DNA from: Eledone cirrhosa
Lineage: Eukaryota
Reading direction: 5' to 3'
DNA length: 64,000 bases
Assembly (NCBI GenBank): GCA_964016885.1
Contig: OZ024745.1
Location: forward strand, 92,380,001 to 92,444,000
Both the position numbers and the translations under genes were made by a program. This document shows positions 15,890-41,226 of this stretch, one piece after another (position 1 is the stretch's first letter; every line of letters begins with the position of its first letter). Under the pieces are notes generated by a model. It was not told where the DNA came from and ran no database searches. It saw only the letters and a program-made list of their open reading frames with translations.

Positions 15890-16172
15890 TATTGTTATAC
15901 TTTGGGAGGGTCATGTTGCCAATAAGAAACACACGCACCAGTTGCTTTCACTTCAATTTATTATAATAAATTTATAATAAATTTATAATAAATTTATAAA
16001 TTTATAAATTTCTGGTTGGTTGGTTGGTTCCACAACCAGATAGTTGTTTATATATTGTCATAGTTCTTTCGTCACACACTCTGCGACCTCTTCAGTGACT
16101 TGGGATTCCTTTCTTTGTTTCTGTGCCTCTCCTTTGTTCTGTCCTATGACCCTCCCAAAGTATAACAATATA
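15890..16172 (-). mobile_element. Penelope-like pseudo-LTR remnant bounded by a 26-bp inverted repeat, in (TA)n
   Basis: atattgttatactttgggagggtcat at ~15890 versus atgaccctcccaaagtataacaatat at ~16146. Contains a hammerhead motif. Confidence 0.6.
16057..16099 (-). ncRNA. Minimal type-I hammerhead ribozyme motif (HH1)
   Basis: Minus strand: GTCA-CTGAAGA-G-GTCGCA(gagtg)TGTGAC-GAAAG-aa-CTA-TGAC. Stems I, II and III and the core boxes are present, with one extra G before stem II. Confidence 0.7.
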
Positions 16173-16229
16173 TATATATGAAATAAAGTTAAATAAAAGT
16201 CAAATGATTAAAATTTAGCTTCGTTTATT

Positions 16230-16284
16230 ACTGCTATATATATTTCAGTGACAGCCATCTTTGGCTGTGACCTCTTCAGGCAGT
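16230..16284 (-). ncRNA. Minimal type-I hammerhead ribozyme motif (HH2)
   Basis: Minus strand: ACTGC-CTGAAGA-GGTcACAGCC(aaagat)GGCTGTcACT-GAAA-(TA)n-GCAGT. 5-bp stem I and palindromic stem III. Confidence 0.8.
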
Positions 16285-16700
16285 TTGAATTAGTATGGTA
16301 TAGACAAGTACATATGTTGTTTAGGTGTATAATATTGTCAATACTCTGATATGCCCAGTTCCTTGTTGGGTTGTTAATTCACTGAGGAACTGGAGTCATA
16401 TGAATTCAAACAAACGAATTTCAGTGTCAAAGGTCCCCTTCTCCTCTCATTGGTCAGTTATTAGAACATTCCTCATATATATATATGTATGTATATATAT
16501 ATATATATATATATATATATATATATATATATATATATATATATATATATAATATATATATATATAAGCAAAGAGATATTTAATTTGTTGGTTATTCAAC
16601 AAATTTATTTATAACAGATTCGAAACACTCTACAGAATTCTTCTGGAGTATAATATCAATGATATTAATAACTGGAAACTATATTTATAAAACCATATTT

Positions 16701-16759
16701 ATTTTATTATATATATTTCAAGGGTACCAAAATTTTGGTACGCTCTCATCAGATAAAAT
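16701..16759 (-). ncRNA. Hammerhead ribozyme motif HH3 (left-arm copy)
   Basis: Reverse complement of 19879-19937, with intact CTGATGA and GAAA boxes. Confidence 0.8.
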
Positions 16760-17355
16760 ACAAAAGTTGTTTTATAAGTATTGACATATCCAAAAAACAA
16801 GATCTTATCATTTTAAGTTCAGTTTGGATAGTGAAAGAAATTTCAAATCTTATGATGAATATGTTAATTAAGCTAAACGTACAATTGAAAAAGATCGTTA
16901 TATTTAGACGCTAGGTAAATTTAAAATATTTAAGAGAAGAATAGAGATAGGTTAATATTAATATTAGGGTGTAAGAAAATTTAAGGAATGTGTTTAAGAA
17001 AAGAATTATATTATAGTTAGAAATACACTATTATTATTAAAATATAATTGTATGGCTCAAATCAGTGATGGTGTAAAGAGAGTGATACAATTATATTTAT
17101 TTATTTAATTATAATTATACACCCTGGTAGTATCTATAAAAGAACCATATGAGAACCATAAATGTGTTGGAATGGTGGAATATCAATTTTAAAATTGAGA
17201 GATAGTACTAATTATTGGATTTAATAATATTATAACTCACGATTAGAATAAATCCAATAATTAGTACTATCTCTCAATTTTAAAATTGGTATTCCCCCAC
17301 CTCCAACACATTTATGGTTCTCATATAATTTTATGGATACTACCGGGGTGTATAA

Positions 17356-17925
17356 TCTCCTTATAATATATAACCAGCAATTTCTCTGTTTGTCTGTCTG
17401 TCCGACAGTGGAAACACGTGCGCGCGTGCGAATGTTTTTTGCGCACGCGTAGAGAGAGAGTGAGAGTGAAAGAAAGAGACATACTACGAGAGGGGGATAG
17501 CGGGAGGGAGAGAGGGAGAGAGAGAGAGTGAATAGATGCTAAAACAGGTGTGCGCGTGCGAATATTTTTTGCGCACGCGTAGAAAGAGAGTGAGAGTGAA
17601 AGAAAGAGACAGACTACAAGAGGGGGATAGCGGGAGGGAGAGAAGGGGGAATTGAGGAGTGCTACAGAAACATATATACATTTCTGTGTGTGTGTAATAT
17701 ATATATATATATACACACACAGAAATATATATATATACACACAGAAATATATATACATTTCTGTGTGCAATATATATATATATACACACAGAAATATATA
17801 TACATTTCTGTGTGTGTAATATATATATATATATATATACACACACAGAAATATATATACATTTCTGTGTGTGTAATATATATATATACTAGCAGAAAAC
17901 CACGCAGTGGGCGGTTTTCTGCTAG
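17356..17925 (+). mobile_element. Non-autonomous Helitron 1 of the tandem array
   Basis: Starts TC after host A (17355) and ends ...ggttttctgCTAG. It has internal tandem duplications and microsatellites. Confidence 0.7.
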
Positions 17926-38486: not shown

Positions 38487-38529
38487 GTAATCTACACGTT
38501 TCATTCTTGTTAGAAATCTTCAGGACCAC
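38487..38529 (-). ncRNA. Hammerhead motif HH5 (unit 2)
   Basis: Same as unit 1 with two substitutions (stem I GTGGTC; stem III ACGTGT). Confidence 0.75.
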
Positions 38530-39603
38530 ATATCCAGTGCTTTTATCGAGAATGACACAGCTAGAGACTTATAGAATACTTAGCTGTGTACAGGAACTGG
38601 TTTGAAAGAGCGGTTGCCGGTCCGGCAGAAATTAGAAATTTCTGAATGAAACAGTACTAGTCCTGTAGAAGCTCCTTCTATAAAATTAAATATATATATA
38701 TATATATATATATATATATATATATATATATATATATATATATATATATATATATTTATATATATATTTATTTATATATATATATATTTATATATATATA
38801 TATATTTATATATATATATATTTATATATATATATAAATATTTATATATATATATATTTATATATATATATATTTATTTATATATATATATATTTATATA
38901 TATATATTTATTTATATATATATTTATTTATATATATATATATATATTTAAATATATATATTTATATATATATTTATATATATATATATATATATATATT
39001 TATATTTATATATATATATTATATATATATATTATATATATATATTATATATATATATTTTATATATAAATATATATATATATTATATATATAAATATAT
39101 ATATGTATATAAATATATAATATATATATATAAATATATAATATATATATATAAATATATATAAATAAATATATTTATATATATAAATATATATATATAT
39201 AAATATATATATATATATAAATATATATATATATAAATATATATATATATATAAATATATATATATATAAATATATATATATATATAAATATATATATAT
39301 AAATATATATATATATATATATATATAAATATATATATATAAATATATATATATAAATATATATATATATATATAAATATATATATATAAATATATATAT
39401 ATAAATATATATATATATATATATATATATATATATAAATATATATATATAAATATATATATAAATATATATATAAATATATATATATAAATATATATAT
39501 ATAAATATATATATATAAATCAATATATATAAAAACAAATAACGAAACGAAATTAAATTTCGATTCGTTTGTAACTCACTTTTGTATGACTGACGCTTAA
39601 ACA

Positions 39604-39789
39604 ATTAAGTTAAAAATGTACATCTACATATGCATACTGAAATACTAGTGTGTATATGAATACACACACGTATACATATGTAGGTGTACCAGTGAAAGAC
39701 TTGGTACACCTACATATGTATACGTGTGTGTATTCATATACACACTAGTATTTCAATATGCATATGTAGATGTACATTTTTAACTTAAT
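39604..39789. repeat. Fold-back, 88-bp arms, 10-nt loop
   Basis: attaagttaaaaatgtacatctacatatgcata...gtacca / tggtac...tatgcatatgtagatgtacatttttaacttaat. Confidence 0.9.
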
Positions 39790-39887
39790 ATATATAAATA
39801 TATATATATATATATATATATATATATATATATATATATATATATATATATATATATATATAAATGTATAAATATATATATATATAT

Positions 39888-40922
39888 TTATAAAAAATAA
39901 ACCAAAGAAGCCTTCAATACATCAAAAGTCTTTATTAGCCAACAATGTTTTGTCCTATTAAGGACTCATCAGGGCAAGTAAAGCTACAAGAAGCACTATC
40001 GGCCAATACAAGCCAAAAACTCAGAAGAATATGGAGTATACACCTATTAAAGCCTAGGAAAGATATCAAGGAAAAGTAGGCTAATATTGAGAGCGAGCAG
40101 TTACAAACATAGATATAGACCAAATAGCAAGGAAGTGATTAACATGTTGAACCCACACTGCAAATATTATATAATGCAAAAACTTGAAACACAAATGGTA
40201 ATATAAAGCGATAATTACAGTACGATATAGAATATAATATAATATAATAGATGGTGACAATAAAAAGCTTTATATATACATATATATATATATATTTATA
40301 CATATATACATTAGTACAAACACAAACTAACACTCATTAAGTATTTAAATATATATATATATATATATATTGTTTATTATATATTATATTTTATTTTTAT
40401 TTTTATCTTTATTCTTATTTTTATCTTTATTATTATATTATACTGTAAACAATATATATATATTTAAATACTTAATGAGTGTTAGTTTGTGTTTGTACTA
40501 ATGTATATATGTATAAATATATATATATATGTATATATAAAGCTTTTTATTGTCACCATCTATTATATTATATTATATTCTATATCGTACTGTAATTCTC
40601 GCATTATATTACCATTTGTGTTTCAAGTTTTTGCATTATACAATATTTGCAATGTGGGTTCAACATGTTAATCACTTCCTTGCTATTTGGTCTATATCTA
40701 TGTTTGTAACTGCTCGCTCTCAATATTAGCCTACTTTTCTTTGATATCCTTCCTAGGCTTTAATAGATGTATACTCCATATTCTTCTGAGTTTTTGGCTT
40801 GTATTGGCCGATAGTGCTTCTTGTAGCTTTACTTGCCCTGATGAGTCCTTAATAGGACAAAACATTGTTGGCTAATAAAGACTTTTGATGTATTGAAGGC
40901 TTCTTTGGTTTATTTTTTATAA
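39888..40922. mobile_element. Penelope-type fold-back, ~500-bp arms, each with a hammerhead motif
   Basis: 39888-~40388 is the reverse complement of ~40430-40922. The ORF track shows identical peptides on opposite strands (39935-40123 and 40687-40875). Confidence 0.85.
40827..40880 (+). ncRNA. Hammerhead motif HH6 with a G12A core change (mirror copy at ~39930-39983, minus)
   Basis: GCC-CTGATGA-GTCC(ttaata)GGAC-AAAAC-ATT-GTT-GGC. The GAAA box reads AAAA in both arms. Confidence 0.65.
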
Positions 40923-41050
40923 TTCTTCGGCTCTGTTTAATTACATTGAGCTATATCTTATACTGTCATTTCTATAATATGAAGAGGGTGTTTAACTCCA
41001 ACACACTCTATTAATTTAATTCTTCTTATATATATATATATATATATATA

Positions 41051-41226
41051 TGGAACAAAAGCACAACCCAAGGTCTCAAGGCCAAAATTTGACCATACCT
41101 CTAGAAAACAAGAGGCATCAAAACTCACATCAGCGCCTGACGAAAGGTCACTATTTTGATGCCTCTTGTTTTCTGGACATATGGTCAAATTTTAGCCTTG
41201 AAACAACGGGTAGTGCCTTTGTTCCA
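41051..41226 (+). mobile_element. Short fold-back (~72-bp arms) containing hammerhead motif HH7 (41133-41216)
   Basis: Arms at 41051-41123 and 41155-41226. GCGC-CTGACGA-AAGG...CCTT-GAAAC-aacgg-GTA-GTGC. Confidence 0.65.

Follow-up and report, generated by a model that had tools for sequence, protein, structure and literature searches.

Hammerhead-bearing Penelope-like elements at (TA)n tracts of Eledone cirrhosa, with a 310-nt retrozyme probably mobilized by the same enzymes

The DNA analysed here is a 64-kb stretch of the 3.0-Gb genome of Eledone cirrhosa (contig OZ024745.1, positions 92,380,001 to 92,444,000; hereafter the window), in which a first-pass annotation had described a 'garden' of hammerhead ribozymes of about seven families within the introns of one gene. 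We consider it probable that these families represent seven insertions into (TA)n, six being ends of Penelope-like elements (PLEs) and the seventh, F5, a non-coding retrozyme mobilized by the same enzymes from circular RNA; for F7, one of the six, the PLE link is only likely. We also favour, with moderate confidence, a genome whose hammerhead load (of the order of 10^5, about 50 per Mb) is among the densest described and in which F5 is a currently spreading RNA circle and each two-armed F5 array is a single event of both-strand copying by a PLE. The six PLE families are new members of known clades and behave as those clades do. The novelty lies in F5, the hammerhead 'garden' being known biology at high density.

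Hammerhead motifs and their density

A motif was taken as a type-I hammerhead if it contained the core CUGANGA...GAAA...UH and three stems, with stem I open. The numbering of positions and the ranking of cleavage triplets are the usual ones. Exact cores were found in F1 at 16057-16099 (-), F2 at 16230-16284 (-), F3 at 16700-16760 (-) and 19878-19938 (+), F5 at 38177-38219 (-) and F7 at 41133-41216 (+). The hammerhead of the second F5 unit (38487-38529) has two substitutions in its core. Both window copies of F6 carry G12A; G12 was kept in 28 of the 30 best F6 loci, the two others being the window's own copies. U4C was present in 25 of the 30 best F4 loci, with canonical U4 in two and damage in three; stem II of this family closes about 75 nt away, and in the copy at about 20063 the GAAA is damaged as well. 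Position 17 is U in F4 and F6, and a U.U stands at the base of stem II in F5 and F8 (a further family, described below). At each of the 11 places listed in the first-pass annotation there is a type-I hammerhead, intact or decayed, and all seven families are type-I hammerheads with copies dispersed through the genome.

A type-I descriptor matched six motifs in the window; 200 block-wise dinucleotide shuffles averaged 0.015 (maximum 1). It had been composed after the motifs were seen and was loosened once before the shuffle test, so the independent test is a random sample of 80 stretches of 10 kb (800 kb) taken from 16 large contigs, for some of which the length is understated. This sample gave 42 matches, against none in each of ten shuffles, and thus bore out a density above that of shuffled DNA. 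The corresponding 52 hammerheads per Mb (bootstrap 33-76) extrapolate to about 1.5 × 10^5 per genome (1.0-2.3 × 10^5), a lower bound, since the descriptor misses F8, whose stem III region is too long. A (TA)6 run lay within 250 bp of 35 of the 42 matches, compared with 25% of background positions, as expected if (TA)n tracts serve as shared landing sites.

The 'garden' was correctly placed, since by the exon coordinates given below all hammerhead motifs fall in introns 2 and 3 of the host gene, but the hammerhead load of the window is the norm for this genome and the locus is not special. Six or more hammerheads are expected in a 64-kb stretch with P = 0.18, and one random 10-kb stretch (L220) alone held six matches. 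It is therefore very improbable that these introns stand out as a place where unrelated, mostly non-coding ribozyme elements are concentrated, although the six matches within 25 kb reach P = 0.037 for a span picked after the fact, match counts correlate positively with TA tract number (rho 0.34, p 0.002) and tandem hammerhead repeats with no evident open reading frame (ORF) occur elsewhere (L239 and L246). That reading also conflicts with the PLE ORFs linked to six of the seven families and with the placement of at least four families in one clade.

Protein and RNA family searches were mostly blind to these elements, as had been supposed, save for some residual signal. Among the 150 Rfam matches listed (of 200), only F6 was identified as a hammerhead (HH9, 25.6 bits, E 0.047; the gathering score of HH9 is 52), and at E<=10 Rfam returned chiefly TA-driven microRNA noise. 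Pfam gave nothing on four F4 ORF pieces and only sub-threshold hits on the linked ORFs, with GIY-YIG at E 0.001-0.002 (Hydra-clade) and RVT_1 at E 4e-4 (F1).

Penelope-like element families

Copies of each family were collected by DNA search of the genome. There were 1,576-2,164 first-look candidates for F2, F3, F4, F6 and F8; only the best 39-40 per family were scored, and the resulting loci therefore lean towards copies like those of the window. A same-sense PLE ORF was present within 2.5 kb upstream of the hammerhead at 13 of 30 loci for F1, 20 of 30 for F2, 8 of 27 for F3 and 12 of 30 for both F4 and F6, tallies that include a few chance neighbours. The distance from ORF to hammerhead is constant at about 208 nt in F1 and about 414 nt in F2. 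At L210, two direct F2 hammerheads 3514 bp apart enclose reverse transcriptase (RT) and GIY-YIG pieces. For F7 an upstream PLE ORF was seen in 3 of 28 rows, two of which are one place, leaving one clear link: at L198 a single decayed ORF, with a degenerate linker motif, lies about 394 nt upstream. No ORF was found in the upstream stretch at L357. F8 gave a PLE ORF in 1 of 24 short flanks, and in a longer stretch (L353) a 632-codon RT frame starts just past the hammerhead.

RWK-like, DKT and CxCx5C motifs, as defined for the Hydra clade of PLEs (PMC8557442), were present in F2, F3, F4 and F8. The F6 piece examined has the CxCx5C linker and GIY, and the RWK-like motif occurs at F6 locus L167. 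RT pieces of F2, F3, F4, F6 and F8 are 39-57% identical in pairwise comparison and, as judged from sequence, these five families belong to one clade, Hydra. In F1, RT precedes a Cx2-5CxxC linker and then GIY-YIG at the C terminus, and the family is called Neptune-like from the linker motif rather than from a tree. The PLE origin proposed for the motifs stands, with linked PLE ORFs in six families (likely only for F7). Both epithets attached to the families are for the most part unfounded: they are not 'unrelated', given this clade, nor a 'mostly non-coding' guild, as only F5 is non-coding.

In the window these coding families are present mostly as 5'-truncated ends. F1 (15832-16167, -) is a two-armed, 5'-truncated 3' end of the Neptune-like PLE, with a tail of about 60 nt at its left end. 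F2 (16180-16474, -) is the 3' end, or pseudo-long terminal repeat (pLTR), of a young Hydra-clade PLE. F3 (16566-19981, both arms) is a single two-armed Hydra-clade insertion with other repeats between its arms. F4 (20008-24059, +) is a near full-length Hydra-clade PLE with an inverted 5' arm, stops and a frameshift; its ORF pieces span 20423-22814 and its hammerheads lie at 23727-23836 (+; U4C, long stem II) and about 20063-20173 (-; damaged). F8, absent from the first-pass annotation, is represented at 38641-38689 (+) by the 3' half of the hammerhead and the short end of another Hydra-clade PLE; it directly abuts the F5 array at that array's 5' end. F6 (39888-41026, both arms) is a two-armed Hydra-clade insertion with hammerheads at about 39930-39981 (-) and 40828-40879 (+). 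F7 (41051-41245, +), an old two-armed insertion, has a hammerhead with a 56-nt stem II region and probably derives from the end of a Hydra-type PLE now decayed.

Elsewhere in the genome, adjacent frames of 479 and 241 codons at L355:3359-5498 (-) encode RT and GIY-YIG of a Hydra-type PLE, a candidate for a near-intact element.

Insertion anatomy

Every element in the window adjoins (TA)n, as the first-pass annotation had noted, and the association holds among the dispersed copies scored. A (TA)4 run was found within 30 nt of 189 of 213 termini, whereas the background stands at 3.5% and a control repeat gave 9 of 84; by family the counts were 46/47 (F1), 32/36 (F2), 23/28 (F3), 32/40 (F4), 24/28 (F5) and 32/34 (F6). 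Two fixed 3' ends occur in every family: a short one and a tailed one. Window copies of F1, F3, F4 and F6 each consist of two divergent arms, one with the short and one with the tailed end, and are therefore single insertions and not pairs; fold-backs were seen in F7. The anatomy of PLE insertions, namely an inverted 5' arm, a tail at one end and a microsatellite target, is that of F1-F6. In published work the PLE tail is the distance separating two RT start sites (PMC11167929).

These observations are consistent with the following mechanism. The GIY-YIG endonuclease of Hydra- or Neptune-type PLEs would cut (TA)n, a target preference that is known and that agrees with the terminal adjacency observed here. 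RT would then start at two fixed RNA-internal sites downstream of the hammerhead, one for each target strand, yielding the short and the tailed arm; the two fixed ends are observed, and priming on both strands is suggested by analogy with in vitro work (PMC11167929). Copying mostly stops early, so that a hammerhead-bearing 3' end flanked by TA remains, and as each (TA)n tract stays a target, different families stack there; both outcomes are seen here.

A TA palindrome in stem III of F2 and F3 was considered as a sign that cleavage makes the TA-matching 3' end. This was rejected, because the integrated ends lie at least about 45 nt downstream of the cleavage site.

Near-perfect fold-backs at 37330-37958 and 39520-39790 lie between TA tracts; they probably represent PLE-type insertions with two arms in which truncation fell before the hammerhead or inside it. 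The second is similar to the end of the tandem repeat at L239.

Covariation of stems

Covariation among genomic copies had been anticipated and was found in the stems of F3-type and F8 hammerheads. The F3-type set was anchored on just stem I plus the first core half; it held 67 distinct sequences, of which the 59 with the second core half were tested. In stem II, 91.3% of cells were paired, compared with 81.8 ± 1.1% for shuffled partners, and the stem III hexamer alternates between self-pairing forms. For F8, 33 of 40 anchored copies were retained, seven having no first core half. They showed 20 two-sided changes, compared with 12.4 for shuffles, a value reached in 0 of 500 shuffles; neither the number of pairs nor that of pair types exceeded shuffles (190 and 150 of 500). 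F1, F2, F5 and F6 show little stem change, and hence little covariation, because their copies are too young.

The 310-nt retrozyme F5

In the window F5 (38016-38640, -) is a non-coding tandem retrozyme represented by two 310-nt units, with hammerheads at 38177-38219 and 38487-38529; its tailed 3' end adjoins (TA)n on the left, and no target-site duplication is discernible within TA. The F5 core pattern has 13,689 exact matches in the genome and its reversed control none. A same-sense PLE ORF was found upstream at none of 50 loci. Units are 310-311 nt long and each holds a type-I hammerhead, which fits a non-LTR (long terminal repeat) retrozyme (non-coding tandem units of 170-400 nt). The first 100 matches listed fall into 15 arrays over 36 Mb of C1, one per about 2.4 Mb, which extrapolates to the order of a thousand arrays genome-wide.

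These 15 arrays and five others were analysed further. Of the 15, 12 are two-armed, two one-armed and one is interrupted by an assembly gap; all 12 two-armed arrays have a short end at unit position 139 and a long end at 163-170. Units differ at 0.23 positions within arrays (679 pairs), compared with 2.2 between arrays (55 pairs). The 16 arrays (of 20) with full units yielded eight modal haplotypes, and in all nine having full units on both arms the modal haplotype is the same on both. Array-private variants occupy both arms in L312 and L316. Variants confined to single units are also preserved, which argues against mere assembly smoothing. Frequent variants affect N7, the base of stem II and loop II, and older relatives, 64-76% identical, have other stems around the same core.

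Starting from this anatomy and clonality, we propose that a multimeric F5 transcript would self-cleave, the short palindromic stem III making cleavage as a dimer likely, and then circularize. From both start sites a PLE enzyme would make repeated rounds of a single monomer, leaving identical units across both arms. It is unlikely, we think, that the arrays were instead copied from linear multimers, or from cleaved linear monomers through template jumping, with the same PLE origin and no circle. A PLE RT does start internally on linear RNA and needs no cleavage in vitro (PMC11167929), and a uniform source array yields a uniform daughter; new haplotypes fixed in all units of both arms (L312 and L316), however, need a bottleneck of one monomer. 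Circular monomers have moreover been reported for coral, mussel and axolotl retrozymes (PMC7229834), and the F5 unit is predicted to fold as a largely self-paired circle (-70.5 kcal/mol, without shuffle control) with stem I extended and interrupted.

Still less credible is a satellite grown by unequal crossing-over after single insertions, with the hammerhead as a relic. Unequal crossing-over has been discussed for retrozymes (bioRxiv 10.64898/2026.07.22.740005), and concerted evolution also predicts the homogeneous units within F5 arrays, but not two inverted multimeric arms of one haplotype that end in TA at two fixed positions, nor arrays dispersed about every 2.4 Mb on C1 with a mutual divergence of just about 2 of 310 nt.

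Several points weigh against PLE insertion and circle copying as set out here. Tails are about 26-165 nt, often longer than the published 30-40 bp. The loci came from DNA searches biased to window-like copies, and the covariation statistics ignore kinship among copies. Several cores are non-canonical (U4C in F4, U17 in F4 and F6, U.U at the stem II base in F5 and F8), and the predicted fold of F7 favours an alternative structure. U4C is a known natural hammerhead variant with much lower activity in vitro (PMC3088659). Clonal arrays could also result from a linear multimer of a uniform source, template jumping or partial assembly polishing. One PLE could insert in vitro without hammerhead cleavage (PMC11167929), and eight of nine predicted Xenopus retrozyme dimers failed to cleave (bioRxiv 10.64898/2026.07.22.740005). 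Finally, the search for an F5 partner found no autonomous element, and the F5-F8 junction is a single case.

That search, a low-stringency BLAST over the fetched loci, gave only the older relatives and a likeness to F8 in core and stem II, where the two families have letters in common. These letters and the F5-F8 junction together give a single hint that F8-type proteins may serve F5.

A one-base insertion in some F5 arrays was considered as a mark of the ligation site and rejected because its position is inside stem I. None of the listed sequencing runs holding F5 is on record as RNA, which is no evidence either way. Three runs with other organism labels (X2, X3 and X6) each gave one self-closing 340-nt F5 contig at 99%+ identity to the unit at 38020-38329 and a depth of 10-26. 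These contigs were not counted as circular RNA or as transfer between species, because a tandem DNA repeat or trace carry-over looks alike and the kind of run is not recorded; carry-over, a related species and an RNA circle are not distinguishable. In the random sample, TA-flanked, two-armed tandem hammerhead repeats at L239:500-2700 (period about 461-472 nt) and L246:8200-9900 (about 457 nt) are likely further retrozyme families.

Host gene and other features

The host gene lies on the forward strand. Exon 1 spans 2077-2178. Exon 2 (9901-10071), the 5' boundary of intron 2, is identical to P0001 at 57 of 57 residues, and exon 3 (31638-31703), which separates introns 2 and 3, at 22 of 22. Exon 4 (about 43975-46295, start approximate) encodes part of an uncharacterized acidic protein and is followed by exon 5 (50348-50473). 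The product resembles uncharacterized proteins of Octopus sinensis and Argonauta hians. Within exon 4, a 30-bp coding repeat at 44405-44995 (+) encodes acidic ten-residue units not seen as such in P0001.

A 1014-codon frame in intron 1 (6303-9347, -) encodes endonuclease, RT and PHD-like domains and seems to be an intact non-LTR retrotransposon. Pieces of a PIF1 helicase and neighbouring frames at 59798-63117 (-) are likely a Helitron. A (TA)n-type tract of 1.9 kb occupies 35047-36984, and runs of (TA)6 or longer cover 5.2% of the window, compared with 3.9% of the random sample.

Comparison with known systems

Hydra-clade PLEs carry canonical hammerheads and nearly all insert into (TA)n; Hydra-1_Obim of Octopus bimaculoides is listed with this preference, and the landing-pad idea for PLEs at (TA)n has already been published (PMC8557442). 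The families described here resemble that clade in the C-terminal GIY-YIG, the RWK-like, DKT and CxCx5C motifs and the pLTR hammerhead, and likewise in (TA)n insertion, the inverted 5' arm and the tail at one end (PMC8557442). They differ from Hydra-clade PLEs as published in the several young high-copy families, in tails of about 90-165 nt, and in the long stem II and family-wide U4C of F4. F1 resembles Neptune-clade PLEs in its order of RT, Cx2-5CxxC linker and GIY-YIG, in the hammerhead within its 3' repeat and in its microsatellite target.

As in the minimal PLE hammerheads described previously (PMC4209133), the motifs are of type I with a short or palindromic stem III, and F1 has an extra base after A9; many families per genome, mostly truncated copies and close opposite-strand pairs are further likenesses. 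Published counts are about 9,000 for Xenopus and 4,000 for coelacanth (PMC4209133), more than 6,000 for coral, about 5,000 for mussel and up to 120,000 for axolotl in a far larger genome (PMC7229834; bioRxiv 10.64898/2026.07.22.740005). The roughly 50 hammerheads per Mb estimated here exceed all of these, a rough comparison as the descriptors differ. A squid paper gives 235 Rfam hammerheads (PMC6962438), and the main text of an O. vulgaris repeat annotation does not contain the words ribozyme, hammerhead or retrozyme (PMC13282606). A literature search, mostly of open-access papers, found no cephalopod survey of hammerheads or retrozymes and no inverted two-armed retrozyme arrays. The estimated 1.5 × 10^5 or so hammerheads are a large octopod repeat class that Rfam and Pfam largely miss.

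Mobilization of metazoan retrozymes by PLEs has been argued from co-occurrence and pLTR similarity, and the same sources leave open which enzyme mobilizes them and whether arrays arise by circle copying or by later DNA amplification (PMC7229834; bioRxiv 10.64898/2026.07.22.740005). Because F5 arrays bear the PLE signature of two start sites together with clonality across inverted arms, the question of mobilization becomes testable. If our reading is true, F5 would be direct genomic evidence that PLEs mobilize animal retrozymes via rolling-circle reverse transcription, with about a thousand arrays as a test set. F5 shares with metazoan non-LTR retrozymes the non-coding tandem units of 170-400 nt and low GC, as well as one type-I hammerhead per unit and coexistence with PLEs (PMC7229834; bioRxiv 10.64898/2026.07.22.740005). 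It goes beyond the retrozymes as published in having the PLE anatomy itself: (TA)n, two divergent multimeric arms, short and tailed ends, and one haplotype per array.

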